Shown: one piece after another, positions 9,607 through 61,738 of the stretch | Position numbering within the stretch: the first letter of the stretch is position 1 | How the letters are laid out: each line of letters starts with the position of its first letter | From: a virus | Strand: one strand, 5' to 3' | Virus record (IMG/VR): IMGVR_UViG_3300045988_101835 | DNA: 64,000 nucleotides | Made by a program: the position numbers and the translations under genes | Notes under the pieces: model-generated | The model's input: only the letters and a program-made list of their open reading frames with translations | The model's database searches: none | Told to the model about the DNA's origin: nothing

Positions 9607-9622
9607 GTGCAATTCTATATCC
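9607..9622 (+). promoter_or_regulatory. Phage-specific promoter-like motif, C-variant (GTGCAATTCTATATCC)
   Basis: One of 9 copies of a conserved motif. A degenerate half-copy ttatatatcc lies at 9574-9583. Confidence 0.5.
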
Positions 9623-11414: not shown

Positions 11415-11430
11415 GTGCAATTCTATATCC
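11415..11430 (+). promoter_or_regulatory. Phage-specific promoter-like motif, C-variant (GTGCAATTCTATATCC)
   Basis: Identical 16-mer to 9607..9622. Confidence 0.5.
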
Positions 11431-19803: not shown

Positions 19804-21027
19804 ATGTCTAATATTAATGATTTTAAGTTAGAGGGGGCTGTGGCGTCGGATGCCATGTCCCCTCTTAGCACGTTAGGTCTTGATGATGTTTCCGCTTCGG
19901 AGCTTGCGGGCATTGCAGAAGCTTCGTCGGGTCTTCCTTATGACCATTACATTTCGTTTTCGAAGCTTCAGGCTACTCCTATGCTTCGTGTTCTGGATTG
20001 CCTTTCAAAGTTGGCAGCGGCTTTGTCAGGCAAGAACGTCCTGATTTCAGCCAATGAGAAGCTCATCACGGTCAAGTATGACAATGCTGCCTACCAGTTT
20101 GTTTTTCGCATTCCGAACTCGTCGGGTAAGACGTTGTCACCTTTTGCCATTCCCATTTCAACCCTGAAGGCATTGTTCGGGAATGTCATGGCTCACTTGG
20201 TTCTCGTCGAGCAGAAGAGTTCCTTCGGGGATCAGCCTGCGGGGCTGTACGCTCATTTCTCGGGGAACCTTGTCTTTGTAGCTACGCAGCCGTTCGACGA
20301 GGGTATGTACAAGTTTGCCTACGACAAGATGACGGATCAGCTTGATGGATCTTACATTAGAACTCACCTTCGTTCCTTTACGTCGCTGCTTGCTTTTTCG
20401 GAGCGGACGTCGGAGCGCCATTTGATCTGTCAGGGTGGGATGTCATATTTGAACATCGGCTCAATTCTGGGGCGCATGAAGTCATTCTTTGGTAATCATG
20501 ACTGCATCATCTCCCGGTATTTGGTTGACTGTATTGCCACGCTTGCTGAGTTCGACGGCACGTCTGTTTCGGGTTTCTTTGCGGACGATCATGCTTCTTT
20601 GAAGTTCGGTGATAGCTGCTACCTTCGATTCGCCTACACTTCGGGGGAGGCTGTTTCTAGGTTCATGAGTCCTTTGTTCCGCAATTCGTTCTCTTATGAC
20701 ACTTCCATCCGTATCGATGATACTCCTTTCTGTCAGTTGCTGACGGTTATCGGGTCTCTGGATTACTTCACGGACACTATTAAGGTTTCCTTCGCTACTA
20801 ATGACTTTACGGTCGTGGCTCACAAGAAGGATGGTTCGGATGCAACTTACAAGTTCCAGTACAAAGAGGGTACGAGTCCGTCGGGGACTATCATCGTGTC
20901 GATTCCGGTTTTGCTTGGTGTTCTGTCGAAGGCTTCGGATGTCACCAAGTATAGCTGTGCTTCTAGTAGCCTTGTTGTTGACTTGGGTGATTGCACTTAC
21001 TGCGTACGCTCTGTGCTAATGGCTTAG
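19804..21027 (+). CDS. Candidate DnaN-like sliding clamp
   Basis: 407 aa. LLAFSERTSERHLICQGGM resembles the DnaN domain-II block fA.s.de.R..L.Gv. Replication-gene context. Confidence 0.4.
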   Translation: MSNINDFKLEGAVASDAMSPLSTLGLDDVSASELAGIAEASSGLPYDHYISFSKLQATPMLRVLDCLSKLAAALSGKNVLISANEKLITVKYDNAAYQFVFRIPNSSGKTLSPFAIPISTLKALFGNVMAHLVLVEQKSSFGDQPAGLYAHFSGNLVFVATQPFDEGMYKFAYDKMTDQLDGSYIRTHLRSFTSLLAFSERTSERHLICQGGMSYLNIGSILGRMKSFFGNHDCIISRYLVDCIATLAEFDGTSVSGFFADDHASLKFGDSCYLRFAYTSGEAVSRFMSPLFRNSFSYDTSIRIDDTPFCQLLTVIGSLDYFTDTIKVSFATNDFTVVAHKKDGSDATYKFQYKEGTSPSGTIIVSIPVLLGVLSKASDVTKYSCASSSLVVDLGDCTYCVRSVLMA

Positions 21028-21096: not shown

Positions 21097-21112
21097 GTGC
21101 AATTATATATCC
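21097..21112 (+). promoter_or_regulatory. Phage-specific late-promoter-like motif (GTGCAATTATATATCC followed by tATAAAT)
   Basis: Conserved 16-mer, intergenic, immediately after a terminator. Confidence 0.55.
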
Positions 21113-21154
21113 TATAAATTATATCTAGGCGTGATTGTAGAGCTTCTTTCAGGC

Positions 21155-21748: not shown

Positions 21749-21753
21749 TAGAC

Positions 21754-22509: not shown

Positions 22510-22540
22510 TTGTGCCTTTAAATTAACTTTCTTATATTTG
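22509..22540 (+). promoter_or_regulatory. Bacteroidota-type promoter (gTTG, 20 nt, TAtaTTTG)
   Basis: tatatttg at 22533-22540. The -33 element matches 3 of 4 positions. Confidence 0.45.
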
Positions 22541-27043: not shown

Positions 27044-27075
27044 TTGTTTATTAAATTAATTATACTTATATTTGT
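27044..27075 (+). promoter_or_regulatory. Bacteroidota-type promoter (TTTG, 20 nt, TAtaTTTG)
   Basis: tttg at 27044-27047 and tatatttg at 27068-27075. Confidence 0.65.
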
Positions 27076-31566: not shown

Positions 31567-32172
31567 ATGAATCTTCCGGTGAGTCATATATGTCTACCTC
31601 CGGGGTTTCGTCACAAAAATTACCAGTGGTTAAAGTTGCTGGAGTTGTGGGGCGGTATTCGTGGTGGTGTTGAGGTTCGTGAGAACTTCATTACGGACGA
31701 TTTGGCTGTAGATGTTTTGGAGCATCTGCCGTGTGCATCGGGGGATCGTATTTCCTTTTGGTATACCCGAGACGTTGGGGGTCGTGGCAAAAATACTTCC
31801 GTTGACTACTTTGGTTTGGTAGGTTTATCCTTGTTGAACTTGTCGGACCGTCGTGTCATTATTACGGAGGGTGTTTCTGATTATTTGTCTGCTAAGTTGT
31901 GCTACCCGACCTTCAACGTTCTTGGGTTTACTTCTCTTGGTGGCAATTCGAAGGCTACCCGTATTGTCTTGTCGTTGTTCGACGAGCTTTATTATTTTGC
32001 GGATAATGACATGGATAAGCATGGGTTTAATACGGGTTTGCGTGCCGGGGGCAACGTTTTGAATTTTTATATGCGTCATGGTAAGCGTGTCCATGTTTTG
32101 ACACCGAATTTGCCTTATAAGGATACGACGCAGCAGTTTCTGGCAGACTTGGCGTTCGCGTTTAACAGTTAG
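31567..32172 (+). CDS. Toprim-domain protein (primase-like)
   Basis: VIITEGVSDYLS...LGFTSLGG...YYFADNDMDKHG...KD. Confidence 0.65.
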   Translation: MNLPVSHICLPPGFRHKNYQWLKLLELWGGIRGGVEVRENFITDDLAVDVLEHLPCASGDRISFWYTRDVGGRGKNTSVDYFGLVGLSLLNLSDRRVIITEGVSDYLSAKLCYPTFNVLGFTSLGGNSKATRIVLSLFDELYYFADNDMDKHGFNTGLRAGGNVLNFYMRHGKRVHVLTPNLPYKDTTQQFLADLAFAFNS

Positions 32173-32973: not shown

Positions 32974-33005
32974 TTTGGATTATTAAATTAACTTTTCTAT
33001 CTTTG
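32974..33005 (+). promoter_or_regulatory. Bacteroidota-type promoter (TTTG, 20 nt, TAtcTTTG), second copy of the promoter-leader cassette
   Basis: tttg at 32974-32977 and tatctttg at 32998-33005. Confidence 0.65.
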
Positions 33006-33329: not shown

Positions 33330-33927
33330 CGACAGTGTGGTGTATACTCGCTTTTGCGAGATCATCAATGGGTTCACGGGTTATGCTATGACCCGTCAGG
33401 ACTTCGAGTCTATTCTGGAGCGATGTGGTAGTCCTTATGCGTGGAGTACGGTCCGGGCGTGGCTTAGGGGTTTGGAGCGCTTAGGCTTCGTTTATCCGTT
33501 GTATAACATCGACCAAGTGCGTTCGGGTGCTAAGCAGGTGTGGTTCTTGTATCATCCCTTGCTGCATCCTTTGCGTTCTACGGAGCTTAAGTACGCTAAG
33601 AGTCTTTCTCCTGTAGAGTCTATCCAGTTGAAGTTTTCTCCGGTTCTGTCTCGTTTAGGAGATACTCGTCCGTGGCATGCTGCTTTACATGCTATTAATT
33701 CTCGAGTTTTCCATGTAGACGTGAATCTTAAGTTCAAGATTGGTATGGGAGTTGTGAATCGGATTTTCGCTCCTCATGTTAATAGTTTGTTTGCGGCGCC
33801 TGTTGTATCTTCTATGTTTGTTATGAGCTTGATTGCTTCTGGGGTTTGTAAGAGGATTTACGAATTAAAGCTGCAGAAAGCCCACGCCTTTAGGCGTGGG
33901 ATGAATGCAGCCTATCTTTTCTTCTGA
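33310..33927 (+). CDS. Hypothetical (winged-helix-like) protein whose 3' end is replaced by IS605 left-end sequence
   Basis: The reading frame runs across the predicted IS boundary at 33861/33862. The last 22 codons are IS-derived. Confidence 0.6.
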   Translation: MGRFVSSDSVVYTRFCEIINGFTGYAMTRQDFESILERCGSPYAWSTVRAWLRGLERLGFVYPLYNIDQVRSGAKQVWFLYHPLLHPLRSTELKYAKSLSPVESIQLKFSPVLSRLGDTRPWHAALHAINSRVFHVDVNLKFKIGMGVVNRIFAPHVNSLFAAPVVSSMFVMSLIASGVCKRIYELKLQKAHAFRRGMNAAYLFF

Positions 33928-34310
33928 TCCTCGATATATCGACGTATTGTATCTTCAGAAATGTGTCCTATCGTCTCAACGTAATAGGATCGCGTCCAGA
34001 GGGTCGGCATGCGTGTCTGCAGCGACGGAAATTCAAGCCGGAGCGTATGTGATGTGTAACCCTTAAGCTGTGCCACAATCCGCGCAACCGGATCAATCGG
34101 GTTGGCCTTAATAAAAAGATGAACATGGTCGGGCATGACCTCCAGCGACTCGATAACCCATCCGAACTTGATAGCTTGCTCATGGAGCAAGACATTAAAA
34201 CGTTTTGCAATATCACCCGTTAAAACCTTTCGACGATACTTGGAGCACCAGATGATATGATAGGCTACATTATAGACGGAGCCTTTATTTATCTGCCAAC
34301 GGGTACGCAT
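33912..34310 (-). CDS. tnpA: IS200/IS605 Y1 (HUH) transposase TnpA
   Basis: MRTRWQINKGSVYNVAYHIIWCSKYRRKVL...MPDHVHLFI...GYTS...LWTRSYY carries the HUH and catalytic Tyr context. Internal ATG at 34310. Confidence 0.9.
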   Translation of the reverse strand: MRTRWQINKGSVYNVAYHIIWCSKYRRKVLTGDIAKRFNVLLHEQAIKFGWVIESLEVMPDHVHLFIKANPIDPVARIVAQLKGYTSHTLRLEFPSLQTRMPTLWTRSYYVETIGHISEDTIRRYIEDQKKR

Positions 34311-34318
34311 GGTTTTTA

Positions 34319-34350
34319 TTTGCAAAAATAGTATTCTATTCTTATATTTG
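34319..34350 (+). promoter_or_regulatory. Bacteroidota-type promoter inside the IS, driving tnpB
   Basis: tttg at 34319-34322 and tatatttg at 34343-34350, with 20-nt spacing. Confidence 0.6.
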
Positions 34351-34369
34351 TGGCATAAAGAGTACAATA

Positions 34370-35500
34370 ATGTTGACCTACAAGTACAAACTCTATAGGA
34401 CGCATCGGACCATATGGTTGGATCGGATGCTTCGTGAGTGTGCGTTTGTATGGAACCATGCGCTTGCACTTCAACGTAGATACTACCATTTGTACGGTAA
34501 GTACGTTTCGTCGGTAGATATGCAGAAGCATTTCGCCAAACGCATCAAGCGGCATCTATTGTACTCACATAATAGCGTTGAGGTATTACAGAGATTGGAC
34601 GCAGCTTACCAACGGTTCTTCAAGAAGCTTGCTAAGCGTCCGCCTAAGTTTCGCCGGGCTTCAGACTTTCAGTCATTCGTCTACAAACTCCACTATGGCT
34701 ATAAAATAGACGGCAATTGCTTTACAATTAACAGACTTAAGAAAACTTATAAATTTCACAAATCCCGTGACTTTGCGGGTGCAATAAAGACGGTTCGTGT
34801 TAAACGCGATCCATGCGGTGACTTTTGGTTATACATTACAACCGATGCCAAAGTAGAAGCCAGCAACACGACATATGATGGTGCGGTTGTAGGAATTGAC
34901 TTTGGCCTTAAGACATATCTGACGTTATCCGACGGGCGCAGCTATGCGAACCCGCAATTCTTCAAGCAGACGCTGCGCGACATCCGTAAGGCGCATCGTC
35001 GGCTGAGCCGTTCCGTCAAAGGATCCAATAACCACCGCCGTCGGTGGTTGGAGCTTGGTCGGATCTACCGTAGGATTAGCAATCATCGCGACGATTATCA
35101 GTGGCGCTTGGCACATGAGTTATGTCGTCGTTATTCTACGATCTGCTTGGAGACACTAAGCCTTGACGGGATGCGCCGGTTGTGGGGTCGCAAGGTTTCG
35201 GATCTCAGCCACGCATCGTTCGTATCGCACTTGGAATTCGTAGCCACTAAGTATGGCACGAGCGTTGTGCATGTCGACAAGTGGTTTGCTAGCAGCAAGA
35301 CGTGTAGTTGTTGCGGATACGTTAATAAGGAGCTTCGTTTGGTTGCTCGATCGTGGGTTTGTCCACAATGTGGTACGCACCATGATCGTGATCTAAACGC
35401 GGCGTTAAACATTAAGCGTTCGGGCATGGGCGCGTTGATTAGTGGTTGTAAGTCCGCTTCGGCGGCCGCCATGCTTGAGTCAAGAATCCAGCGGCTTTAG
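34370..35500 (+). CDS. tnpB: TnpB RNA-guided endonuclease, copy B
   Basis: 376 aa. VVGIDFGLK, ICLETLS and HDRDLNAALNI motifs. CSCCG...CPQCG zinc ribbon. Confidence 0.9.
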   Translation: MLTYKYKLYRTHRTIWLDRMLRECAFVWNHALALQRRYYHLYGKYVSSVDMQKHFAKRIKRHLLYSHNSVEVLQRLDAAYQRFFKKLAKRPPKFRRASDFQSFVYKLHYGYKIDGNCFTINRLKKTYKFHKSRDFAGAIKTVRVKRDPCGDFWLYITTDAKVEASNTTYDGAVVGIDFGLKTYLTLSDGRSYANPQFFKQTLRDIRKAHRRLSRSVKGSNNHRRRWLELGRIYRRISNHRDDYQWRLAHELCRRYSTICLETLSLDGMRRLWGRKVSDLSHASFVSHLEFVATKYGTSVVHVDKWFASSKTCSCCGYVNKELRLVARSWVCPQCGTHHDRDLNAALNIKRSGMGALISGCKSASAAAMLESRIQRL

Positions 35501-35537: not shown

Positions 35538-35603
35538 CGGGTTGGGTCCTTAAGATTAAGTCTACTCTCTCGGATATGGGTGTTTCTTTGAACAGTGATT
35601 TTT

Positions 35604-37880
35604 ATGGCTGGGGGAAATAGTACTACTACTTTAGCGAATCTTTATCGTCCCAAGACTTTTGCGGACGTCGTGGGCCAGCCTTTGGCGGTTACCACCTTGA
35701 AGCGTATTGCCCATGCGGACGGTATCGCCGCACGTGCTATTTTTATGAAGGGTGCGTTTGGCTCCGGTAAAACTACGACTGCCCGTATTTTTGCTAGAGC
35801 TTTGAACTGTGATACTTTCAAGCAGACTGACGATGTTTGTAATACGTGTGATGGTTGTCTGGAGGCTTCGTCGGTTAATTCCTCTACGTATTGGGAGCTT
35901 GATGGTACAGTCATAGGTAACGTCGAGGGTATTCGTGCTCTGAAGGAGCGCTTGTCTATTGTTCCTAATGGTCGTAGGGTTGTCTGTCTTGACGAAGTTC
36001 AGAGTTGCTTGTACTATAATACACCTGTAGTGTGTGTATCAGATGACGGCAGTATTTACCGTCAGCCGATTCACAAGATTGTTAATAATCGGCTACCTGT
36101 GAAGGTTCTTTCGGTTAACGCTGCGGGAGGTCTTTGTGTTTCTCGTGTTACGGGTTGGTTTAAGAATCCTCTTAAGCAGTTATGTCGTATTAAGGTACGG
36201 GGCGCTTCTGGTCTTAAAAAGATTGGTTCTGGCTCGCGGGTAATAGTTTGTACTTTAGATCATCGCTTTTTACGTTCGGATGGTGAGTATGTTTGTGCTT
36301 CGGACTTACATTTAGGAGATTCGTTGTCATCTTTTTTTAGTGTGTGCGGGGATCGTTTTATTCAGGCAGAGCTTAATAAGCGTACTGAGTATATCATTTC
36401 CGATTCAACAAAGTCGTTCCTTTATGGGAGTCTTTTGGGTGATATGTACTTTTCTTCTGGTGATGTAAATTACAATTATCGTTTGAAGTGCACTCATGGA
36501 CATGTTCAGCTTTTTTGGTTACGTGAGAAGCATCGTATACTTGGGTGCTTAGCTGGGGCCTTGCGGGAGTTTGTTAGCTCGCCGGGTGCTTATGTTGATT
36601 CAGTTTCTGTTATGAATTCGTTGAGTCATCCTTTATTTACCGAGATGGCGAGAGTTTGTTGTGGTTCTGATGGGAAACGTCACGTAAATATGGAGTGGTT
36701 GTCTCATGTCGACGAGATAGGGTTAGCTGCTTGGTTTATGGATGATGGTTCTTATCATTTTCGTCGTTTGCGTAATAAACAGGTAACCTGCTTGCATGGG
36801 GTTCAACTGTCTACTCATAGCTTTACTTATGAGGAAAATGAACTTTTAGTTAAGTGGTTATCTGATCGTTGGGGTCTAGATTTTTATATTAGGGTTGATA
36901 AGAGATGTGGTAAGCCTTACTTAGTTTCTAGTCATGTTGAGTCTGCTAGGAAGTTTTTAGCACTTGTTGCTCCTTTCCTTTGCAAGGAGTTTCAATATAA
37001 GTTAGGTAACACTTTTGAGGCTGGTGGTGGTGTTAGGTCTATTCCAGCAATTTCCAAGCGAGTCCCGGAATACTTCGGCGGTTTTTTATTCGATGGGGTT
37101 GTCGAGAGTATTGAGATTTTTGACCCTCCGAAGTACTCATCTGTTAAATCTGGCTGTTTGTCTAGCGAGAATAAATATCCTTATGATAATGGTTGGGTAT
37201 ACGACTTGGAGGTAGCAGATACTCATTCTTATATTGCAGGCCGGGGATTTGTGGTTCATAACTGCAGCAGGAGTGCGAGTGACGCTTTATTGAAGGTTGT
37301 CGAGGAGGGAGTTCCTAATACGATCTTTCTCTTTTGTGGCACGGAGGATATCCAGCCAACTTTAAAGTCTCGTTGTGTAAATATTGACATTTCGGTTATT
37401 CCTTTGTCTTTGATTGCGGATCGCGTTCGGTTTATAGCTAACGACCGGGGTATCTCTATTACGGATGATCAGCTTCGAATCTTGGCTATGAAGTCTCAGG
37501 GTCACATGCGGGATGCCCTTCAGTTGCTTCAGTTTTACGAGCTTGCGGGCGAACGTGCTCTTGACAGCTCCTACTTCTTGTTCCGGGAGTTTGTGCGCTC
37601 TTGCTTCGCAAAGGGCGCCGATCCTTCGTCCGTTTTGCCAAAGCTGTTGGTTTATTCCACTGCAGATATAAAGATGTCTGTAGGGCTTCTTATTCGCAAT
37701 ATTTTCGGCAGTGTTCAGGATGACTCTTTGGAGTCTAAGTTCCAGCGTGCGGGTCTGGGTCAGACGTTGTTTAGCTTTTTCTTTTCTCCGTTAGCTCAGC
37801 AGGCTTTGGGTTCTGAGATTGGGACAGAGATTTTGCTTAGGTCTTTAATGGAGCGAACTGCGGGTTCTCGAAAGGTGTAG
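35604..37880 (+). CDS. Clamp-loader AAA+ ATPase (DnaX/RFC/gp44-like) interrupted by an intein
   Basis: LYRPKTFADVVGQ, Walker A GAFGSGKTT, Walker B CLDEVQS, then after the intein SASDALLKVVEEGVP and LKSRC. Confidence 0.85.
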   Translation: MAGGNSTTTLANLYRPKTFADVVGQPLAVTTLKRIAHADGIAARAIFMKGAFGSGKTTTARIFARALNCDTFKQTDDVCNTCDGCLEASSVNSSTYWELDGTVIGNVEGIRALKERLSIVPNGRRVVCLDEVQSCLYYNTPVVCVSDDGSIYRQPIHKIVNNRLPVKVLSVNAAGGLCVSRVTGWFKNPLKQLCRIKVRGASGLKKIGSGSRVIVCTLDHRFLRSDGEYVCASDLHLGDSLSSFFSVCGDRFIQAELNKRTEYIISDSTKSFLYGSLLGDMYFSSGDVNYNYRLKCTHGHVQLFWLREKHRILGCLAGALREFVSSPGAYVDSVSVMNSLSHPLFTEMARVCCGSDGKRHVNMEWLSHVDEIGLAAWFMDDGSYHFRRLRNKQVTCLHGVQLSTHSFTYEENELLVKWLSDRWGLDFYIRVDKRCGKPYLVSSHVESARKFLALVAPFLCKEFQYKLGNTFEAGGGVRSIPAISKRVPEYFGGFLFDGVVESIEIFDPPKYSSVKSGCLSSENKYPYDNGWVYDLEVADTHSYIAGRGFVVHNCSRSASDALLKVVEEGVPNTIFLFCGTEDIQPTLKSRCVNIDISVIPLSLIADRVRFIANDRGISITDDQLRILAMKSQGHMRDALQLLQFYELAGERALDSSYFLFREFVRSCFAKGADPSSVLPKLLVYSTADIKMSVGLLIRNIFGSVQDDSLESKFQRAGLGQTLFSFFFSPLAQQALGSEIGTEILLRSLMERTAGSRKV
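36006..37262 (+). mobile_element. Intein (419 aa) with a LAGLIDADG homing endonuclease, inserted after Walker B of the clamp loader
   Basis: Starts at Cys (CLYYNT), block B TLDH, LYGSLLGDMYF and LAAWFMDDGSY, ends VVHN followed by +1 Cys. Confidence 0.85.
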
Positions 37881-37889
37881 GTTTTTGTT

Positions 37890-38468
37890 ATGGTTGATCG
37901 CGTGGATATTGTAGATTTAGATTCTGCTGCTGAGGTTAGTGTTTCGTCGGCTCGTGTTGTTATAGATAAGCGGCTGTTGCTTTCTTTTTACATGCATCCT
38001 ACGGATGAGACTACGGAGGCGGAGCTTGCTGAGATTAATAAGGTCATCAGCATTGTTTTGAATACTCATTTTGGTAAGTATTACCGCATGTTTGATGACT
38101 TGCGTTCGCAGGCTCTTGCTACTATTATAGAGCGTCATGATCGCTTTGACTCGAAGATGGCAGCTTATCCTTATCTGTATACCATGATTCGCAATGAAGC
38201 GGGTAATTTGATTCGTCGTTTGCTTCGTGAGGATGACCTTGAGGTTCTGCCGCCGTCACGCGGTCGTGTTGCAGAGATTATTCCGAGTGTTTTAGACGAG
38301 CTTCTGCCGTTCTTGTCGGGTGACTCTCCGTTTACACGTATAGAGATTCCGCATGGTCTTGTAGGTCCGTTTCTTGTCTTTTGCCAATGTGGCTTAAACA
38401 AGAAACAGTCGGAGTCGGAGGCTATGGAGTCGGTTATCGGCAAATTGGTTGACATTTTTATTTTTTAA
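37890..38468 (+). CDS. Candidate phage sigma factor (sigma-70 region 2 / T4 gp55-like)
   Basis: 192 aa. HDRFDSKMAAYPYLYTMIRNEAGNLIRRLLRE resembles gp55 [30 protein letters not shown]. Hydrophobic tail LVDIFIF. Confidence 0.45.
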   Translation: MVDRVDIVDLDSAAEVSVSSARVVIDKRLLLSFYMHPTDETTEAELAEINKVISIVLNTHFGKYYRMFDDLRSQALATIIERHDRFDSKMAAYPYLYTMIRNEAGNLIRRLLREDDLEVLPPSRGRVAEIIPSVLDELLPFLSGDSPFTRIEIPHGLVGPFLVFCQCGLNKKQSESEAMESVIGKLVDIFIF

Positions 38469-38480
38469 TTTTATTATCGC

Positions 38481-39386
38481 ATGGACGAAAATACTATTTT
38501 AGGAGAGGATTCTCCCGTCACGAGTTTGGAGTCTTTGGTTCGTCTCGGCACGGCCACGGAGACGGATTTGGGTATGCAGATGCGTGCCATCATGGTAGGT
38601 GTTTCTACCGCTGCTTGTAACATTGTGGAGCGTCTTCACAATCAGTCTATGGCCTGCGCTAATATTATGCAGCGTCTTTCTGACAAGCATTTGGAGAAGT
38701 TGTCGGAGGAGATCGAGACGATGGATCGCACTGAGCTGGATGTTGAGTATAAGAATCTCATGGCTCGTCAGATCGAGGTTGCCAAGCTGGAGATCAAGAT
38801 TGCTCAGGGTAAGGCTATGTTCCCTGAGGATTCTTTCTCGGAGGAGGATCGTAAGATTCTGCGTATGCTTTCGGCGCTTCGTTCGAAGGAGGATCGCCAG
38901 CGCTTCGTTCGCATTCTGTCGGAGGAGTTCGGTGACGAGAATAGCTTCGATAGCGAGCCTGTGGTTCCTTCGGAGCCTATTTACGATGCAGTCGATCCTG
39001 CTGATTCGGAGTTGACGCGCGGTGGTCGTGTTCGTCGTGCGTCACGTAAGGTTTCGGCTGGCCGCGAGATGCCTCAGGATGAGTTCGCTGAGATGGAAAC
39101 TACGGTTACGGTTGCTCCGGAGAATCCCACGAAATCGGTGGATATTGACGTTGTGGTTCCGGATAGCAGTGTCGGCGTTCCGCAGCACGCTATCGAGCCT
39201 ACGCCGACGTCGGGTGTCGAGGTTGGTCCTGAGTCGCTTGCGGATGCTCCGTCGGATGTCAAGCTTCCGGAGCCGCCGGAGATTCCGGGATTCGAGCTTC
39301 CGCATGATGAGTCTCCGGCTCCTGCGCCTGCTGCTCAGCCTGCTCAGGCGATTCCTGACTTTGAGGACGAGTTCGCAGGCATGTAG
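38481..39386 (+). CDS. Hypothetical protein with a coiled-coil N-domain, P/E/A-rich linker and tip IPDFEDEFAGM
   Basis: ORF-track ORF. The tail was read directly from the sequence. Confidence 0.6.
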   Translation: MDENTILGEDSPVTSLESLVRLGTATETDLGMQMRAIMVGVSTAACNIVERLHNQSMACANIMQRLSDKHLEKLSEEIETMDRTELDVEYKNLMARQIEVAKLEIKIAQGKAMFPEDSFSEEDRKILRMLSALRSKEDRQRFVRILSEEFGDENSFDSEPVVPSEPIYDAVDPADSELTRGGRVRRASRKVSAGREMPQDEFAEMETTVTVAPENPTKSVDIDVVVPDSSVGVPQHAIEPTPTSGVEVGPESLADAPSDVKLPEPPEIPGFELPHDESPAPAPAAQPAQAIPDFEDEFAGM

Positions 39387-39400: not shown

Positions 39401-39415
39401 GTCAATTATATATCC
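39401..39415 (+). promoter_or_regulatory. Late-promoter-like motif variant (GTCAATTATATATCC) overlapping a 9-bp hairpin at 39415-39438
   Basis: 14 of 15 positions match the consensus. Hairpin is ccggaaatc-N6-gatttctgg. Confidence 0.45.
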
Positions 39416-39454
39416 CGGAAATCTTGGTAGATTTCTGGGGTATTTTGTTTGGTT

Positions 39455-39988
39455 ATGAATGAAGGTTTGATTTGCGGTTTATCGCGTGTTGAGGATTCTC
39501 TGGATGATTTGTATTCGGAGGCCTATGTTGCTTCTATGGGCCAGCTTTTGGAGATTGCGGCCTGCGAGGAGATTCTGGCTTGGGCACAGTATGCTGTAGT
39601 TTCTCCCTATCTTGTTGGCGAGGAGCGTGCTAACATCGAGGAGCTTTTCAATACGAATGCCAAGGACGAGCTTGACGATCATTTCTGGAAGCTCCAGAAC
39701 CGCATGAATGAACTTCAGTACGTCCCTAAGACGTTATTTGACTTTTCTAAGATTCAGTCTACCGCCCGTTGTGAGTACCATATCCCTACGGATGTTGCGG
39801 ACTTGATTACGCTTCTCAAGCAGAATATCGAGTCGGAGGAGTGCGCTATTCGCACTTACCAGAATATCATTATGGTTGCCCGTGATAATTCCGATTTTGT
39901 CACGGAGCGTATTGCTAAGGAGATTCAGGACGACGAGGCTCAGCATCTCTCGGACTTGAATGACTTTTTGGCCGACTTGGAGTCTTAG
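39455..39988 (+). CDS. Ferritin-like (bacterioferritin/rubrerythrin-fold) protein
   Basis: EEILAWAQY, KDELDDHF, SEECAIRTY and DDEAQH resemble the E...ExxH...E...ExxH di-iron pattern. Confidence 0.45.
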   Translation: MNEGLICGLSRVEDSLDDLYSEAYVASMGQLLEIAACEEILAWAQYAVVSPYLVGEERANIEELFNTNAKDELDDHFWKLQNRMNELQYVPKTLFDFSKIQSTARCEYHIPTDVADLITLLKQNIESEECAIRTYQNIIMVARDNSDFVTERIAKEIQDDEAQHLSDLNDFLADLES

Positions 39989-40108: not shown

Positions 40109-43100
40109 ATGGGGTCAGTTAAGGATACGATACAGCGTCGGGGTGGTGTTGCTTCTGCCGTCAGCGACTTGCTTCTTACGGAGCGCAAGCTAGTAGGATT
40201 TCGGGAGTTTATTCTTTCTCCAGACTATATGGCTTTGGAGGGGGTCTATCCTTTCTGGTTGAAGGAGGCAGATAACATGCAGGATGACTTGTCTTCACTG
40301 GTGTTGACAGGCTCATTAGGAGGCGGCAAGTGCGTAGTTTACAGCGACTTGGTATCGACGGATCATGGGTACGTTCCTATTGGGTCTTTGGTTCCAGATG
40401 CGGGTTATGGCTTCACACCGTTCGAGGTTGGTGTCGAGCAGCCAGATGGTAGCTTTGCGCAGACGAGTCATTTCTACAAGGAGAAGGACGCGGAGGTGCT
40501 TCACTTGCGTTGTGCTAGTGGTCGGAGTTATAGTGGTACTGCGGATCATCCTCGGTTAGCTTATCGTGTCGGCTCGGATCGCGTTGAGTTGGTTCGCTGT
40601 GGCGACTTGCGTGTCGGTGATTATATCGCCCGCCGTTGGACAGGTAGTATCGAGTTGCATCCGGACGCAGATGAGGCTAAGCTTTATTGCTTGTATGGTG
40701 TCTGGCTTGGGGATGGTCATTTTGATAATGCTGTTCCTCACAATCCAGTTATAGGTTATTTGTCATGTGATACTTTAGCTGATTGGTGTCGTGAGGTTGA
40801 AGGCTATTTGACGAGTAATGCTCATATTTGTAAAGAGAGTGGCTGTCGGTTATATTCGTTGCCGTTGTATCGCTCTAGGCTTCGTGATTTTATAGGTGGT
40901 TACTGTGTCGCTAATACGAAGTATATTCACAGTGCTGCTTTCGGAAGTCGTGAGCGTGCATTTTACACGTTGTATGGTTTGCTTATTACAGATGGGTATG
41001 TAAATAAAGGTCATGGGACGCTTGGGTTTGCTACAGTTTCTCCGCGTTTGGCGGATGGTGTATGTAGCATTCTCGACTATCTTGGTTTGCAGTATAGCAT
41101 CCGGAAGCGTACAGATCGCAAGTATTTTTATAAGAAGGTTGGTGAGTGGCGTCCGGCGCAGGACAGTTATCGGATAACTATATCAGTTGAGTCATCGCAT
41201 GCTTTATACGATGCTATGCTAGCTTACGTTCCTCTCCTTGAGATGGATGCTCCGCATCAGCGTCGTCTTATTGAAGGGCTTCGTGCAGATTTTGAGGCTC
41301 GTGCTAGTAAGAGTTCTCGAATAAACTGTAAGACTACTTTCAAGTTAGAAGGTGCTGAGGTTGGCATAGTGGCGCAGCTGCGTTCGGTTCGTCAGTTGAC
41401 GGATGTGTCGACGCGAAATAAGTTTGATTCTTATGCTAGGACTACCCATTCTATGTTGGGGAATAAAGCTGCATCCAATCAGGCTTTCGAACGTTTGCGA
41501 GCGTGGTTGGAGGATCGAGGTCAGACGTTGCCGGACAACTTGGCTTCTTTTTGTGATGTTCGTTTTGACCGAATTGAGAGTATTGATACGACGGTTGAGG
41601 ATGTTTATGATGTTACAGTTCCTTCGACGCATTTGTTCATGTCGGGGAATGTGGTGAATCATAATACGTCTTACCTGAATATGGTTACTTGCTATAAGTT
41701 GTATTGCTGGTTTAGTCAGGGCGACTTGTATAACTATTTTCAAATCCTTCGTGGTACGCCTATTTACTTTTTGTACTTCTCTGTATCGATGAAGGCTGCG
41801 GAGCGTTCTGGTTTCAAGCAGTTGCGACAGATGATTGATAATGCCCCGTGGTTTAAAAATAATTTTCCGCGCCGTAAGGACATTCAGTCTTCCATTCAGT
41901 TTAATAATAATTTCTCAATTGAGTTTGCTTCGGGTGAGAGTCATGCTATTGGTTTGAATGTCGTTGGTGCTATTATTGACGAGGCTAATTTCAGGAATGG
42001 TGTCGGTCAGGGTACTGTTTCAGAGTATTCGGAGGTCCAGCGTTTGGCTCAGCAGTTGGAGGACCGTATGCATTCTCGTTTTACCCGTGAGGGCGGTAAG
42101 TTGATTTCTTTCATGGGGTACATTTCCTCGGCTTCTTATCAGTCTTCGTTTATCGAGGAGAAGGTTGCCGAGTTGGCATCTGATCCGCAGGGTCGTGTTA
42201 TTAATGCCGTTCAGTATAAGATTTGTCCTCAGAATTACTCGCCTAAGAAGTTCGAGGTGTTCTGTGGCTACCAGCAGATTTCCCCGTGTATTGTCCAGAG
42301 CAAGGAGCATAAGGCTACGCTTGTGAAGTCTATGAGTCTTCCGAAGTCTAAGGCGGAGGGTTATTTCGAGCGTGTTCCGGAGGATCTGAAGTCGCAGTTC
42401 AAGAAGAACATCTATCTGGCCATCCAGAATCATTGCGGACGTTCTACAGCGGCTAAGGGTAGCTTCATCACGAACTATGATGTCGTTCGCAAGGCGTATA
42501 GTGATGCGTTGCTTCGTGCGTGTCCTTTGGTTCAGAGTAGTATTGTTGTCTCGGATCAGGACGATACTCCTATCCGCTCTGTTCTGGATATTTCACGTTT
42601 ACAGTATACGGATCGTCCTCATGCCCTGTGCTTGGACTTGTCTTTGACGGGCGACCACGGTTCTTTGTGCTGTGTTCGGTTTGATGGCTATGCGGCAGAC
42701 GGCAGGGCTTTGCATAATGAGGTTTTCAACTTAGAGCTTGTTCCTCCGGCGTTTCCGGGGATGTTGAAGGTTTCGAAGGTCGAGGATTTCATTTTGTGGC
42801 TTGCAGAGCATTTGAATATTGTGGTTTTTAGTACTGACCAGTTCCAGTCCACGCAGCTTCGTCAGAATGTGTGCGAGGCTTTGATGCTTCCGGATATCCG
42901 CCTTTCTTTGGATAGTTCCGACATTCCTCATTTGTTGTGGCTTTCGATGTTAGTTGACGAGCGTCTTGGTCTTCTTTACTTGGAGCGTCAGGATCGAGAG
43001 ATTCGGGAGGCGGTCCATGATGTTGTCAAGCATAAGGTTGTCAAGCGTGACGGGTCTTCAGACGACCAGTTCCAGACTTTGGTCGGTGCCTTCTTCTTGT

Positions 43101-43414
43101 CGGAGACGATCTGTACGCAGGAGGGGGATATATCGTCCTTGCTTGATGCGCGCCTTAACTTGGTTGGTGCAGGTAATATTAACCGTATGCTTAAGTCGCT
43201 TGGCTATGGTGGCGTTGCTTTGGATGGCCGGGGTCAGGTTGCCCGTGCTGCTGTTTCGGACGTCGAGGCTCCGCGTCCGAGTGTCCGTTCGCTTCTGGAG
43301 GGTCGTGCTGCTTCGGGTCCGTCGTTTACGAGTTCTGATGTTATTGCTTCGATGACGCCGCGTCGTAGACGTGGTGGTGTCTGGGATTTGATTAATGGTT
43401 TGGGCGACAAGTGA
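40109..43414 (+). CDS. terL: Terminase large subunit interrupted by an intein
   Basis: The P-loop GSLGGGK|...|TSY is reconstituted after intein removal. Walker B-like GAIIDEANF. Sits upstream of the portal-size gene. Confidence 0.85.
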   Translation: MGSVKDTIQRRGGVASAVSDLLLTERKLVGFREFILSPDYMALEGVYPFWLKEADNMQDDLSSLVLTGSLGGGKCVVYSDLVSTDHGYVPIGSLVPDAGYGFTPFEVGVEQPDGSFAQTSHFYKEKDAEVLHLRCASGRSYSGTADHPRLAYRVGSDRVELVRCGDLRVGDYIARRWTGSIELHPDADEAKLYCLYGVWLGDGHFDNAVPHNPVIGYLSCDTLADWCREVEGYLTSNAHICKESGCRLYSLPLYRSRLRDFIGGYCVANTKYIHSAAFGSRERAFYTLYGLLITDGYVNKGHGTLGFATVSPRLADGVCSILDYLGLQYSIRKRTDRKYFYKKVGEWRPAQDSYRITISVESSHALYDAMLAYVPLLEMDAPHQRRLIEGLRADFEARASKSSRINCKTTFKLEGAEVGIVAQLRSVRQLTDVSTRNKFDSYARTTHSMLGNKAASNQAFERLRAWLEDRGQTLPDNLASFCDVRFDRIESIDTTVEDVYDVTVPSTHLFMSGNVVNHNTSYLNMVTCYKLYCWFSQGDLYNYFQILRGTPIYFLYFSVSMKAAERSGFKQLRQMIDNAPWFKNNFPRRKDIQSSIQFNNNFSIEFASGESHAIGLNVVGAIIDEANFRNGVGQGTVSEYSEVQRLAQQLEDRMHSRFTREGGKLISFMGYISSASYQSSFIEEKVAELASDPQGRVINAVQYKICPQNYSPKKFEVFCGYQQISPCIVQSKEHKATLVKSMSLPKSKAEGYFERVPEDLKSQFKKNIYLAIQNHCGRSTAAKGSFITNYDVVRKAYSDALLRACPLVQSSIVVSDQDDTPIRSVLDISRLQYTDRPHALCLDLSLTGDHGSLCCVRFDGYAADGRALHNEVFNLELVPPAFPGMLKVSKVEDFILWLAEHLNIVVFSTDQFQSTQLRQNVCEALMLPDIRLSLDSSDIPHLLWLSMLVDERLGLLYLERQDREIREAVHDVVKHKVVKRDGSSDDQFQTLVGAFFLSETICTQEGDISSLLDARLNLVGAGNINRMLKSLGYGGVALDGRGQVARAAVSDVEAPRPSVRSLLEGRAASGPSFTSSDVIASMTPRRRRGGVWDLINGLGDK
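40331..41665 (+). mobile_element. Intein (445 aa) with a LAGLIDADG homing endonuclease, inserted in the TerL Walker A loop
   Basis: Starts at Cys (CVVYSD), block B TADH, LYGVWLGDGHF and LYGLLITDGYV, ends VNHN followed by +1 Thr. Confidence 0.85.
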
Positions 43415-43427: not shown

Positions 43428-43443
43428 GTGCAATTATATATCC
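43428..43443 (+). promoter_or_regulatory. Late-promoter-like motif (GTGCAATTATATATCC followed by tATAAAT)
   Basis: Intergenic, 20 nt before the ATG at 43464. Confidence 0.55.
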
Positions 43444-45723: not shown

Positions 45724-45755
45724 TTTGCATAATAAAATTAATATCTTTATATTTG
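45724..45755 (+). promoter_or_regulatory. Bacteroidota-type promoter driving the toxin cassette
   Basis: tttg at 45724-45727 and tatatttg at 45748-45755, with 20-nt spacing. Confidence 0.65.
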
Positions 45756-47345: not shown

Positions 47346-47399
47346 TTTTGTTTAGTTTTACATTTGGTTTCATATAAGGAGGTTTGGTCCTCCGGTTTG

Positions 47400-47445
47400 C
47401 CTCGGGTGTTGCATGACGTCAGTCGTGCAATGTCCGAGGGTTTTT
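47400..47445 (+). terminator. Terminator (cctcgg...ccgagg outer stem with an inner ttgcatgac/tcgtgcaa stem, then T5)
   Basis: Read directly from the sequence. Lies in the spurious 5' extension of ORF-track ORF 47364. Confidence 0.6.
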
Positions 47446-47449
47446 GTTT

Positions 47450-47465
47450 GTGCAATTATATATCC
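47450..47465 (+). promoter_or_regulatory. Late-promoter-like motif (GTGCAATTATATATCC)
   Basis: 27 nt before the ATG at 47493. Confidence 0.55.
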
Positions 47466-47492
47466 TTAAAATTAAAAATTGTTTTAGGATAT

Positions 47493-49307
47493 ATGGCAAA
47501 GTTGATTCCTATGGTTCGTGAGTTCAACACGTCTCCGGTTGCGGAGCTTGACGTGCTGTCTCACAACATTTCGGTTATAGCTTCGGAGCTTGGTGTTGAG
47601 TATGCTACTCCGGTCTCGACTGTTTCTTTCGTCCGTGCTGTTGGTGACGGTAACGAGTTCACGGTTACGGTTGATGCTGTTTCTGCGGAGTCGAAAGTGG
47701 GAGTTGTTACTCTCCTTGTTGATCGTGATTCGGATGTAGAGTATACTATTTCGGCGGAGGGCTTCGAGGATATTACGGGCACTTTGTATGTTTCGGATGT
47801 CAATGCTCAGGTCCTGCTTCCTCGGTTTACTGCTGTAAGTAGTGATGAGAAGTTTACTGTCACGGTGTCGGCCACTCCGTCGGATGCTACGGTTAAGATC
47901 AACGGCCAGTCTGTTTCGGAGTTGGAGGTTGCCGCGGGATCGAATGTTTCGTGGTCTGTGTCTAAGGACGGTTACATTCCTCAGTCGGGCAACATTCAGT
48001 CTATTTCCAAGGATGAGACTGTTACTGTTACGCTGGAGGCCGATGCTATCGAGTCGTATAGTGACGTTGCCGTTGTCCTGAGTTACGCGGGCACTCCGGT
48101 TGCTGCTTCCGGCGGTACGGTTACTCCTACTGTTTCTTATTCTCAGATTGCTTCTTATAAGTCTGGTAAGACGGAGACCATTACTTCGGGTGGTTCTGTT
48201 TCATTCTCCGGCGATGATGTAGATACTGTTTCGGGTTCTGTTGATGTTCCGAGCGCTGGTACTACTGTTTCGGATGTCACCTTGATTACCACGGCTACCT
48301 GCACTGTTTCGCTGAATGGCAAGAGCGGTTCTGCTTCTGCCGAGATTAACCGTGCTGCTAATACTGTAGAGTATAGTGCACCTGTTGTTTCGGGTGGCAC
48401 CTACGCTGAGATTCCTGCAGGCGGCGGCAGCTCGACTCCGTCGGGTCTTTCTTATACTCAGACTGCCACTTACAGTTCTGGTTCGTCTGAGGCCATCGCC
48501 ACAGGCGGTGATGTTACCTACAGTATGCCTACTGTTGAGGGTCTGACTTTGGCTAGTGCTTCGACGGGTGAGGTTTCGGGTACTGATCGTGGTTCTGTTG
48601 CAGGTGACGCTATCTCTGGTACTGTTACAGCTACGGTTAGCTTGAATTCCAAGTCTGGCACGCTGGAGATGCCTGTTTCGCAGGCCGCCAATGAGGCAAC
48701 CTACGGGGATGTTTCGGTTGTCGTAGGCGCTATCGCTGATATTCCTGCTTCGGGTGGCGAGGCTGTTGTTGGTGATGTTACTTGCACGCAGGCTGTGTCT
48801 TATACGTCTGGCGCATCTTTGGAGAATCCGATTGAGGATTATACTGTGTCTAGTCCTCTGCCGTCCGCTTCGGATTTGTCTACGACGGTTAAGGAGCGCA
48901 CGAAGGTTGGTACTGTTACTGTTACGGCTACGGGTCAGGGTGATAAGTCCGGTACGGGTTCTGCTGATGTCTATCAGGCGGCTAATGTTGCCACGTATGG
49001 TGACGCTACGGTTTCTTTGACTTATCCTGACATTCCTGCTGAGGGTGGTAGTGTTAATCCTAACGCTTTGACGGGTACTCAGTCTGTATCTTATACTTCG
49101 GGTGCTTCGGAGTCGGATGTTTTCGAGGTGGAGGGTTCTCCGGTGTATAGCGGCACGAATGTCGATCCGAGCACGGGTACTGTTACAGCAGAGGCTACGG
49201 AGTCCGCTTCTCGCACTCTTATTACTACGGCTTCGGTTTCTGTTCAGAGCCACGGCAAGACGGCTACGGCTTCTGCTGAGGTTTATCAGGCCGCTAAGAC
49301 GGAGTAG
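47493..49307 (+). CDS. Capsid-decoration-like protein (Hoc analogue) with PEGA/Ig-like modules and 4 tandem repeats
   Basis: FTVTVSATPSDATVKINGQ...SKDGY is PEGA-like. Four units of about 103 aa end in (Y/S)QAAN. Head-module context. Confidence 0.55.
   Translation: MAKLIPMVREFNTSPVAELDVLSHNISVIASELGVEYATPVSTVSFVRAVGDGNEFTVTVDAVSAESKVGVVTLLVDRDSDVEYTISAEGFEDITGTLYVSDVNAQVLLPRFTAVSSDEKFTVTVSATPSDATVKINGQSVSELEVAAGSNVSWSVSKDGYIPQSGNIQSISKDETVTVTLEADAIESYSDVAVVLSYAGTPVAASGGTVTPTVSYSQIASYKSGKTETITSGGSVSFSGDDVDTVSGSVDVPSAGTTVSDVTLITTATCTVSLNGKSGSASAEINRAANTVEYSAPVVSGGTYAEIPAGGGSSTPSGLSYTQTATYSSGSSEAIATGGDVTYSMPTVEGLTLASASTGEVSGTDRGSVAGDAISGTVTATVSLNSKSGTLEMPVSQAANEATYGDVSVVVGAIADIPASGGEAVVGDVTCTQAVSYTSGASLENPIEDYTVSSPLPSASDLSTTVKERTKVGTVTVTATGQGDKSGTGSADVYQAANVATYGDATVSLTYPDIPAEGGSVNPNALTGTQSVSYTSGASESDVFEVEGSPVYSGTNVDPSTGTVTAEATESASRTLITTASVSVQSHGKTATASAEVYQAAKTE
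48063..49304 (+). repeat. Four tandem coding repeats of about 310 nt
   Basis: Repeat units: ...YSQIASYKSGK...INRAAN, ...YTQTATYSSGS...VSQAAN, ...CTQAVSYTSGA...VYQAAN, ...GTQSVSYTSGA...VYQAAK. Confidence 0.75.
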
Positions 49308-49724: not shown

Positions 49725-49738
49725 GCAATTATATATCC
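49725..49738 (+). promoter_or_regulatory. Late-promoter-like motif (GCAATTATATATCC followed by cATAAAT)
   Basis: 13 nt before the ATG at 49752. Confidence 0.55.
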
Positions 49739-57551: not shown

Positions 57552-57707
57552 ATGGTCGTTCTGGATGTCTTTGAGTTTCTCATTGGGGTTGTTCTATATC
57601 TTCTAGGGTTTTGGCTTGCCTGTGCGGTTCTTTTTGCGGTCTTGGGTTACCTTTATTGGTTTGTGGGCCTCCTAGTGCGCGCGTGCAATTATATATCCCA
57701 CAAATAA
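57552..57707 (+). CDS. Small membrane protein (51 aa)
   Basis: MVVLDVFEFLIGVVLYLLGFWLACAVLFAVLGYLYWFVGLLV... The 3' end overlaps the promoter motif. Confidence 0.4.
   Translation: MVVLDVFEFLIGVVLYLLGFWLACAVLFAVLGYLYWFVGLLVRACNYISHK
57683..57698 (+). promoter_or_regulatory. Late-promoter-like motif (GTGCAATTATATATCC followed by cAcAAATA)
   Basis: 21 nt before the ATG at 57720. Confidence 0.55.
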
Positions 57708-60730: not shown

Positions 60731-61738
60731 ATGTATCGGGGTATTATTTACTTGCGGACTTCGCCGTCGGTTAAGTACTACGTCGGCTTGACCACGAATG
60801 AGACCAAGCGTCAGGAGTATTGGTTAAATACCAAGCGCGACTACGGTGGTTATCTAATTCGTGACGCCCGGAAGCGTTATCCGCCGGAGACGTGGGGCTA
60901 CACGGTTTTGGCGGAGGTCTTTAGTCCTTCGCGGTCGGACCTTATGGTTTGGCTTAATGCGCTGGAGGTCTACTTCATTTGGCGTTACGACTCTAATAAC
61001 CCGGAGCATGGTTATAACCTCACACGCGGTGGTGAGGGTCGTCTTGGCTACAAGTGCCGTCCGGAGGTTAAGGCGCGTCTTTCTGCTTTGTACAAGGGTC
61101 GCCCGCTTTCCGAGGAGACGAAGGAGAAAATCTCTCGTGCGGCTAAGGGCCGCAAGGCTTCGGAGGAGACACGACGGAAGCTGTCGGCTGCTCATAAGGG
61201 CAGAAAGCATTCAGAGGCTGCTAGGCGTGCTATGTCTTTAGCTTTGCGTGGGGTTCCGCATCATGCAGGTACTGGGCTTATTTTATCAGCTATCCACAAG
61301 GGGCGCAGACTTGATCCATCTCATGTTGCTAAGTTGCATGCTGCTAATCGTAAGGCTGTGCTACAGTATTCATTGTCGGGTGAGTTGCTGGCGGAGTTTG
61401 ATAGCGCTGTTGAGGCAAGTGCTGCGCTGGGAGTTTGTTATGGCCCTATTAGTCAGTGTTGTCGCGGCACTTTAAAGACGGCTTATGGGTTCAAGTGGGT
61501 TTTCAAGAATCCTGCACCGCCAGCCATCAAGCGTTCAGATCGTTATGTGGGTCAGTTCAGTTTGGAGGGCGAGTTGCTGCATGTTTATCCGTCTGCAGTT
61601 GCTGCCGCTAAGGCGACTTCTGGTCTTGTCTATGGTATTCGTGGATGCTGTAGAGGGGAGCATATTACGTCGGGTGGTTTCCGTTGGCATTATGTACATA
61701 AAGATACTCATGCAATTATATATCCCATAAATAAATAA
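60731..61738 (+). CDS. GIY-YIG homing endonuclease with NUMOD3 repeats, paralog of ORF 52199
   Basis: GIIYLRTSPSVKYYVGLT, YGYN, SEETKEKIS / SEETRRKLS / HSEAARRAMS repeats, YGFKWVF and GGFRWHYV. Confidence 0.8.
   Translation: MYRGIIYLRTSPSVKYYVGLTTNETKRQEYWLNTKRDYGGYLIRDARKRYPPETWGYTVLAEVFSPSRSDLMVWLNALEVYFIWRYDSNNPEHGYNLTRGGEGRLGYKCRPEVKARLSALYKGRPLSEETKEKISRAAKGRKASEETRRKLSAAHKGRKHSEAARRAMSLALRGVPHHAGTGLILSAIHKGRRLDPSHVAKLHAANRKAVLQYSLSGELLAEFDSAVEASAALGVCYGPISQCCRGTLKTAYGFKWVFKNPAPPAIKRSDRYVGQFSLEGELLHVYPSAVAAAKATSGLVYGIRGCCRGEHITSGGFRWHYVHKDTHAIIYPINK
61711..61725 (+). promoter_or_regulatory. Late-promoter-like motif (TGCAATTATATATCC followed by cATAAATA) embedded in the last codons of the homing-endonuclease gene
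   Basis: 26 nt before the sheath ATG at 61752. Confidence 0.55.

Follow-up and report, generated by a model that had tools for sequence, protein, structure and literature searches.

Positions 37,890 to 39,386 of a stretch of 64,000 nucleotides (nt) from the virus record IMGVR_UViG_3300045988_101835 (the whole stretch is called the window below) hold two adjacent genes, open reading frame (ORF) 37890 and ORF 38481, which may together form a switch for late transcription in a phage. The first encodes a sigma-like protein of 192 amino acids (aa) and the second a partner protein of 301 aa; both frames, and the peptides quoted from them in an earlier note on this DNA, are present on the + strand. 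The window is phage-like, and its credible genes all lie on that strand. The module and its immediate surroundings, with the grounds for each assignment, are as follows.

35595..37880, + strand: clamp-loader gene (DnaX/gp44-like) with a LAGLIDADG intein, the upstream neighbour of the module (Pfam, PHROG)
37890..38468, + strand: sigma-like protein, 192 aa, proposed late promoter-specificity subunit (Pfam, family profile, AlphaFold, Foldseek, NCBIfam)
37968..38234, + strand: sigma region-2 domain (aa 27-115), which holds the family motif YxYTxxRNExGN (Pfam, model helices, Foldseek)
38286..38465, + strand: C-terminal three-helix domain (aa 133-192), ending in LVDIFIF (AlphaFold model helices)
38481-39386, + strand: partner protein, 301 aa
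38481..38960, + strand: conserved helical N-domain of the partner (aa 1-160), motif QGKxLFPEDxxSxEDR (alignments A6 and A9)
38961..39350, + strand: variable linker of the partner, rich in proline and acidic residues (aa 161-290; 0 to about 140 aa in relatives)
39351..39386, + strand: conserved C-terminal tip of the partner, IPDFEDEFAGM, and stop codon (tips in relatives)
39403..39415, + strand: candidate late box CAATTATATATCC, 17 nt after the partner stop, ahead of a ferritin-like gene and the gene of the large terminase subunit (TerL)

The upstream neighbour matches DNA_pol3_delta2, DNAX_ATPase_lid, LAGLIDADG_2 and Intein_splicing in Pfam, and PHROG 5846, clamp loader, with an E value of 3.5e-42. 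The sigma-like gene starts 9 nt after it, in agreement with the earlier placement of the module directly after the clamp-loader gene, and four lineages of related phages (L001, L012, L014 and L018) have a clamp-loader gene in the same place. Inteins that carry LAGLIDADG homing endonucleases interrupt not only the clamp-loader gene but also the large terminase gene of the window (40109-43414), and clamp loaders with an intein are found again in the distant relatives L012, L014, L018 and L045.

The assignment of ORF 37890 to the sigma factors begins with Pfam Sigma70_r2, which matches its aa 62-111 with an E value of 2e-5 and 24.7 bits, just above the cutoff of 24. The NCBIfam model TIGR02937 for sigma70 factors of the extracytoplasmic function (ECF) type covers the protein by its region-2 half only (model positions 14-72 of 165). 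An indexed protein search returned just 5 relatives and an exhaustive profile search 82 cluster representatives, nearly all of them 175-210 aa long. Sigma70_r2 is matched individually by 41 of the 61 aligned family members, while neither Sigma70_r4 nor any other region-4 model is matched by any of these 61. When the family profile is compared with the PDB, ECF sigma factors only are found, always in region 2, with E values of 0.004-0.6, and the nearest PHROG is a generic sigma family (13 of the 61 members). Tblastn with ORF 37890 and two distant family members gave no match among 50,697 phage genomes, and the back-translated pattern YNYxYT..RNExGN found nothing in IMG/VR. Judged by these searches, the proteins make up a new and apparently metagenome-only family with a typical length of about 180 aa.

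An AlphaFold model of ORF 37890, built from the 61-sequence alignment, is confident, with a predicted local distance difference test score (pLDDT) of 88. It consists of a four-helix N-domain (aa 27-115; helices 27-35, 43-60, 62-81 and 92-115, pLDDT 94-98), an acidic linker of low confidence (116-132) and a separate three-helix domain (133-191; helices 133-142, 155-169 and 175-191, pLDDT 92-96). In a Foldseek comparison of the model with the PDB, isolated region-2 structures of sigmaE and SigC come out on top (probability 1.0, template-modelling score on the target 0.6-0.69), and full-length ECF sigmas rank below them. Since the full-length factors score worse than the fragments, it follows that the C-domain of ORF 37890 adds nothing region-4-like. 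A profile of the C-domain alone, taken from the whole family, has no PDB match at E ≤ 10. The mean net charge of the domain is about zero, its best-conserved positions are hydrophobic, glycine or proline rather than basic, and in the family it carries the motif YL(T/S)GExxF. An uncharged domain with hydrophobic conservation does not look like the helix-turn-helix that reads a -35 element. The sigma region-2 part of the "sigma region-2 / gp55-like block" described in the earlier note is thus borne out by Pfam, by the family profile and by AlphaFold with Foldseek, so that the proposed profile and structure searches did find a sigma-like fold (sigmaE region 2, probability 1.0). Taken together, the data support a sigma-2-only protein, the architecture of which is nearer to that of T4 gp55 than to that of a two-domain ECF sigma, and ORF 37890 is probably a late promoter-specificity factor.

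For the partner protein, close homologues were uninformative, and homologues were taken from the gene after the sigma-like gene in progressively more distant loci. The resulting alignments A6 and A9 divide it into three parts: a helical-looking domain of about 155 aa, an unconserved linker and an exact C-terminal tip. The tip combines acidic residues with a hydrophobic residue and is kept in homologues of merely 20-40% identity, where it reads IPDFEDEFAGM, ALDFDEFAGM, DDEFVGM, DDEFEGM, DDEFDGI, DDLEFEN, KDDDNTF or SSDDELE, with a weaker ELDSNE in L014. A conserved tip on a variable linker is what a short linear binding motif on a flexible tether typically looks like, and the long disordered linker ending in IPDFEDEFAGM, noted earlier, is confirmed as a variable linker with a conserved tip at the very C-terminus. 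When profiles of the helical domain were searched in the PDB, Pfam, PHROGs and NCBIfam, nothing beyond scattered chance matches came up. The pattern DDEFxGM followed by a stop codon, back-translated and searched in IMG/VR, occurs only in the partner itself, within the phage group, and in unrelated dCMP deaminases. The idea that this tail is common to several proteins of the phage, as in the case of the T4 polymerase, gp33 and gp55, was therefore rejected, as this search found it in no other protein of the phage group. Two further proteins of the window end in acidic/aromatic tails, namely ORF 7808 (7808-8767), with GEDFPEDFGGSSF, and the coiled-coil protein ORF 13552 (13552-13974), with LPDFDDDDALA. 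These tails may belong to one interaction network with the partner tip, or may resemble those of the single-stranded-DNA-binding protein (SSB).

The two genes stay together. In every lineage recovered (n = 10: the window, L001, L004, L012, L014, L017, L018, L045, L046 and L047) the partner comes directly after the sigma-like gene, with an overlap or at most 30 nt between them, and in L004 and L045 the pair is retained though the clamp-loader gene is not adjacent. Insertions (a ferritin gene, insertion sequence (IS) elements, a gene for 2288 aa) always stand between the partner and TerL, and never between the sigma-like gene and the partner. A late box lies between the partner and the ferritin/TerL genes in the window, L001, L007, L010, L004, L045, L046 and probably L047. 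Other genes separate partner from TerL in the window, L001, L004, L018, L045 and L047, with the late box among them except in L018, and in L046 the late box alone does so. In L004 and L045 a promoter of the host type, TAnnTTTG, stands immediately before the sigma-like gene and a late box immediately after the partner gene. With a host-type promoter before it and a late box after it, the pair would be a pre-late unit that the host polymerase transcribes. A pre-late pair, followed by genes behind a phage-specific box, is the logic of a sigma cascade.

The ferritin-like gene directly after the pair, behind the late box (39449-39988; Pfam Ferritin, E 2e-14), is found in the same place in no fewer than five further lineages (L001, L010, L018, L045 and L047); an iron-storage protein beside packaging genes is unexpected. 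The C-terminus of its product, DLNDFLADLES, resembles the T4 clamp-binding motif, and was rejected as a coincidence because it lies inside the Pfam ferritin match. In L004 (10310-17176), the partner and ferritin genes are set apart by inserted genes for proteins of 2288 and 726 aa, which stand behind a late box, and the 2288-aa protein shares a segment with the head-fibre-like protein of the window (47364-49307).

The late box itself is the motif (GTG)CAATTATATATCC(yATAAAt), which is present in the window as 7 exact copies and 3 copies with 1-2 mismatches, all on the + strand. At up to 2 mismatches, the 13-mer CAATTATATATCC occurs 10 times when 1.4 occurrences are expected, and its core TATATATCC has 8 copies, each of them on the + strand, where 0.33 would be expected, so that the conserved promoter motif which had been claimed for this phage does exist as a promoter-like motif. 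Copies with 0-1 mismatch have a likely start codon about 10-45 nt downstream. Among the genes behind them are the ferritin-like and TerL genes, ORF 43458 and the portal gene, the head-fibre gene, the protease and capsid genes, two operons of the tail region and a few genes of the left arm. In addition to the copy at 39403..39415, which has counterparts right after the partner gene in L001, L007, L010, L004 and L045, the positions are:

43431..43443, + strand: late box ahead of ORF 43458 and the portal gene
47453..47465, + strand: late box ahead of the head-fibre-like gene
49726..49738, + strand: late box ahead of the prohead protease and Gp23-type major capsid genes
57686..57698, + strand: late box ahead of ORF 57711 and the following genes
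61713..61725, + strand: late box ahead of ORF 61752 (607 aa)
21100..21112, + strand: late box of the left arm, ahead of the ORFs at about 21150-22509
9610..9622, + strand: one-mismatch box CAATTCTATATCC, ahead of the gene of a UvsX-like recombinase
9571-9583: a further variant of the box
11418..11430, + strand: one-mismatch box ahead of ORF 11500

In the relatives, a core TATATATYY followed by nnTAAA precedes late genes in L001, L004, L007, L010, L018, the AT-rich L014 and L045-L047, and this core is kept in L014 and L018 though their sigma-like proteins are only about 33% identical to that of the window. Nothing is conserved at the distance of a -35 element, either in the boxes of the window or in those of the relatives, and the window shows no enrichment of the canonical T4 late box TATAAATA.

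The phage to which these genes belong encodes a T4-type portal protein (Portal_T4), a Gp23-type major capsid protein and, with a weak match, an S77 prohead protease (Peptidase_S77); its relative L014 has the same set in clearer form. The identity of the capsid protein with cultured phages of the T4 superfamily is merely 21-28%, a capsid match at 97% originates from human faeces, and the portal protein had no match when the 50,697 phage genomes were searched. Contigs of related phages reach 132-142 kb. By its genes, it is to be placed as a deep-branching, apparently uncultured myovirus of the gut, distantly related to T4, and for a phage that is distantly T4-like a T4-style late switch is a reasonable expectation. 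The + strand of the whole window shows a strong excess of T over A (AT skew down to -0.48) and an excess of G over C, and tRNA genes are absent from it.

A second promoter type bears on the host. The sequence TAnnTTTG, which we take to be the -7 element of the primary sigma of the Bacteroidota, occurs in promoters of the early region, and AATTAA-N6-10-TAnnTTTG is present in 5 copies in the window when 0.03 are expected. The form of these promoters is AATTAA(C/T)T..T-TAnnTTTG; the AATTAA is unusual and replaces the usual TTTG at -33. The window also carries elements of the IS200/IS605 type within the phage, with two TnpB genes and one Y1 TnpA gene on the minus strand.

32986..33005, + strand: host-type (Bacteroidota) promoter AATTAA-N-TAnnTTTG, the nearest one upstream of the block of clamp-loader, sigma-like and partner genes
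16937-16956, 22521-22540, 27054-27074 and 45736-45755: further copies of the host-type promoter
235-1344, 33912-34469 (minus strand) and 34370-35500: IS200/IS605-type elements

TnpB proteins of the IS605 type occur in several copies, with 82-97% protein identity, in an uncultured Muribaculaceae metagenome-assembled genome (CANQWS01), and these copies are either a clue to the host or else mis-binned phage contigs. The TAnnTTTG promoters and the TnpB copies in the Muribaculaceae genome make a Bacteroidales host likely.

From these elements a mechanism can be outlined. The sigma-like gene and ORF 38481 would be co-transcribed by the host RNA polymerase from TAnnTTTG promoters of the Bacteroidota type. 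The region-2 module of ORF 37890 would dock on the clamp helices of the beta-prime subunit and would recognise and melt the -10 element, with the small, non-basic C-terminal helical domain standing in the place of region 4. In this way, ORF 37890 would redirect the host core polymerase to single-box promoters without a -35 element, TATATATYY-nnTAAA (CAATTATATATCC-yATAAAt in the phage of the window), and the redirected polymerase would read the packaging, head and tail genes behind the late boxes. ORF 38481 would be a cofactor, the conserved helical domain of which binds the sigma-like protein or the polymerase, and the acidic linker and tip of which tether the complex to a third protein, with a sliding clamp as the favoured candidate. 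The module may in this sense be a late sigma with its cofactor, which share the labour in the manner of gp55 and gp33 without being detectably homologous to them. We hold this reading tentatively, as the one preferred here but somewhat short of probable. The cofactor role of ORF 38481 taken by itself is likewise possible rather than probable, and contact of its tip with a clamp is rather unlikely.

T4-style late transcription is textbook knowledge, and several features are shared with the system of gp55, gp33 and gp45. In both cases a T4-like phage has a sigma-like protein of about 185-190 aa with region 2 and without region 4, the late promoters (here candidates) consist of a single AT-rich, -10-like box without a -35 element, a second protein, small and helical, carries a conserved C-terminal tip of acidic/hydrophobic character behind a linker of variable length, and the module adjoins the clamp-loader gene. 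There are also differences. There is no significant match in sequence or structure to gp55 or gp33; the tail is present on the partner only and reads DDEFxGM instead of (S/T)LDFL(F/L/Y); the promoter box is TATATATCC where T4 has TATAAATA; the two genes lie side by side in an operon, while in T4 genes 55 and 33 are distant from one another; and no gp45-like clamp was identified in the window. A precedent outside T4 for activation that is coupled to replication through clamp motifs is the MuC protein of phage Mu, recently shown to use the beta clamp of its host, and the late promoters of Mu also have a -10 element and no -35 element (PMC12867686). MuC, however, acts together with sigma70 as a DNA-binding activator, and its clamp-binding motifs are canonical (PMC12867686), whereas here a phage sigma would replace the host sigma, and the partner tip is non-canonical as a clamp motif.

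Several observations weigh against a module of the gp55/gp33 kind. The gp55-like part of the block described earlier did not hold, in that gp55 is absent from the top matches in the PDB and in Foldseek: T4 gp55 chains are missing from the Foldseek PDB top 50 of the ORF 37890 model and are not among the PDB profile matches of the family at E ≤ 10. The gp55 PHROG (phrog_234) is touched by one of the 61 family members, and hhalign of ORF 37890 with T4 gp55 gives weak similarity, with an E value of 0.003 and a probability of just 10%. Against viral models (BFVD), Foldseek finds assorted phage sigma factors, a few of them annotated as gp55-like and all with E values of about 0.02-1; those annotated as gp55 or late sigma match at about 0.1-1 only. 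ORF 37890 is thus not demonstrably a homologue of gp55. Its LVDIFIF, previously taken for a hydrophobic tail, is in the model the end of the helix 175-191, folded with pLDDT above 90, and C-termini are not conserved across the family, from which it follows that ORF 37890 lacks the clamp-binding tail of gp55. The partner, for its part, shows no similarity to T4 gp33, with which the earlier note had proposed to compare it (hhalign probability 0.1%; no PDB match to the chains of 3TBI or 7D7D). Its tip DDEFxGM is of similar character to the T4 clamp-binding motif (S/T)LDFL(F/L/Y), as in SLDFLYEAND of gp55, TLDFLL of gp33 and SLDFLFG of gp43, but it is a different motif. The gene order, too, has aspects of this kind. 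In L012 and L014 the partner gene adjoins or overlaps TerL, where T4 has its small terminase subunit; in L018 the sigma-like gene and the partner gene have a late box between them; and as the loci all come from a single syntenic clade of phages, their adjacency by itself is weak support for functional coupling.

The clamp is a further point on this side. The presence of a clamp loader implies a clamp, yet none was identified in the window by searches of ORF 19804 and of a positional candidate.

19804..21027, + strand: clamp candidate of the earlier note, 407 aa

ORF 19804 has no match in Pfam, PHROGs, NCBIfam, the PDB or the phage genomes, and hhalign with E. coli DnaN and T4 gp45 did not go beyond shuffled controls, which is a weak test as it compares single sequences only and is insensitive; its description as a DnaN-like clamp found no support in these searches. 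The positional candidate, a protein of about 200 aa at 31567-32172, is found upstream of the clamp loader in all lineages and was rejected as an equivalent of gp45 because it is a Toprim-domain protein, with the motifs TEGVSD...DNDxxxxxTG. ORF 23153 was considered as a tail-bearing polymerase, which is unsupported: it has no matches in Pfam, PHROGs, NCBIfam or the PDB. This frame (23153-26983, 1276 aa) is partly conserved in L001 and L004, and its L004 homologue has Pfam matches to InPase and DUF3873. In T4, the clamp contact of gp33 is essential, and that of gp55 matters less (PMC2988020); the contact between gp33 and the clamp has also elsewhere been described as the essential one (PMC7892883). 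From the essential role of the gp33 contact follows that a clamp tail on the cofactor alone is mechanistically plausible. We nevertheless regard it as unlikely that the Bacteroidales T4-like clade has re-invented replication-coupled late transcription in full with non-homologous proteins, namely a sigma-2-only factor for TATATATYY promoters and an operon-linked cofactor, the long flexible linker of which ends in a novel kind of clamp-binding tip (DDEFxGM) for the phage clamp or the host DnaN.

Three other explanations were weighed. Suppose that ORF 37890 is a late sigma and ORF 38481 the small terminase subunit, with a DNA-binding N-part, a coiled-coil oligomerisation domain and a tail that binds the large terminase. 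Small terminases generally consist of a helical domain and a C-terminal tail, which the partner would fit. The partners of L012 and L014 (154-164 aa) have the size of T4 gp16, share its helical character and stand immediately before TerL or overlap it, just as T4 gene 16 overlaps gene 17; no other candidate for a small terminase was identified; and as the block from clamp loader to portal is syntenic, the linkage to the sigma-like gene may be incidental. However, hhalign of the partner with gp16 was negative, nine members had no terminase match in Pfam, PHROGs or the PDB, and insertions separate the partner from TerL and never from the sigma-like gene. In most lineages a late box, mostly with other genes, parts it from TerL, while a host-type promoter groups it with the sigma-like gene, and a disordered linker of 100-140 aa, foreign to gp16, would be unusual on every subunit of a ring oligomer. 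A small terminase is the foremost alternative for ORF 38481, but an unlikely one.

The pair could, on the other hand, be an ordinary ECF-type sigma with its anti-sigma. The C-domain would then be a degenerate region 4, still able to bind the beta flap, ORF 38481 would act as a cytoplasmic anti-sigma that keeps the sigma inactive until a signal frees it, and a clamp would play no part. ECF sigma genes are typically followed by the gene of their own anti-sigma, and here the partner is directly downstream, the size of ORF 37890 is similar to that of group 4 (ECF) sigmas, its closest matches in sequence and structure are region 2 of such factors, and one PDB alignment (5uxx) extends from region 2 into the start of region 4.1, opposite the YLTGE motif. 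Repression by the partner would not even be foreign to the T4 system, as gp33 itself represses basal transcription (PMC7892883). Yet region 4 leaves no signal in the 61 members or in the C-domain-only profile, the candidate promoters have no conserved -35-like element, the partner has neither an anti-sigma domain match nor a membrane segment or anchor, and sequestration alone would leave a conserved free tip on a variable linker unexplained, so that we consider an anti-sigma quite improbable. The tip might, finally, be a hub motif like the SSB tail, which brings ORF 38481 to the host polymerase or to proteins of replication or recombination, and not to a clamp. It is acidic with a near-terminal phenylalanine or leucine, ORF 7808 and ORF 13552 end in similar tails, and the C-termini of bacterial SSB resemble it more than the clamp motifs QL[SD]LF or SLDFLF do. 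With no binding partner identified, and with DDEFxGM-stop in IMG/VR confined within the phage group to the partner protein, this appears very unlikely.

Further genes of the window lie outside the module. The frame 15234-15938 encodes a homologue of the anti-Thoeris protein Tad3 (Pfam PF25185, E 2e-26). A protein of 927 aa (28166-30949), conserved throughout the clade at 39-58% identity, has weak similarity to B12-binding radical-SAM proteins (TIGR03960, E 2e-7). Two free-standing homing endonuclease genes of the NUMOD type (52199-53239 and 60689-61738) are placed in the structural region.

Returning to the late sigma with its cofactor, three of its parts appear to be new: the metagenome-only family of sigma-2-only factors, the conserved tailed partner that is not homologous to gp33, and a candidate cognate promoter box, with a -10 element only, in deep-branching T4-like phages with likely Bacteroidales hosts. 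The control of transcription by phages of the Bacteroidota is almost unstudied, and the rules for sigma factors and promoters in these hosts differ from those of E. coli. A sigma-2-only family, a partner that looks obligate and a candidate promoter together provide a model of the late switch in abundant uncultured gut phages. As orthogonal parts for gene expression in Bacteroides, the promoter box and the sigma-like protein could also be of use. If it is true that the partner tail binds a clamp, this would be an independent case of replication-coupled late transcription, after those of T4 and Mu.

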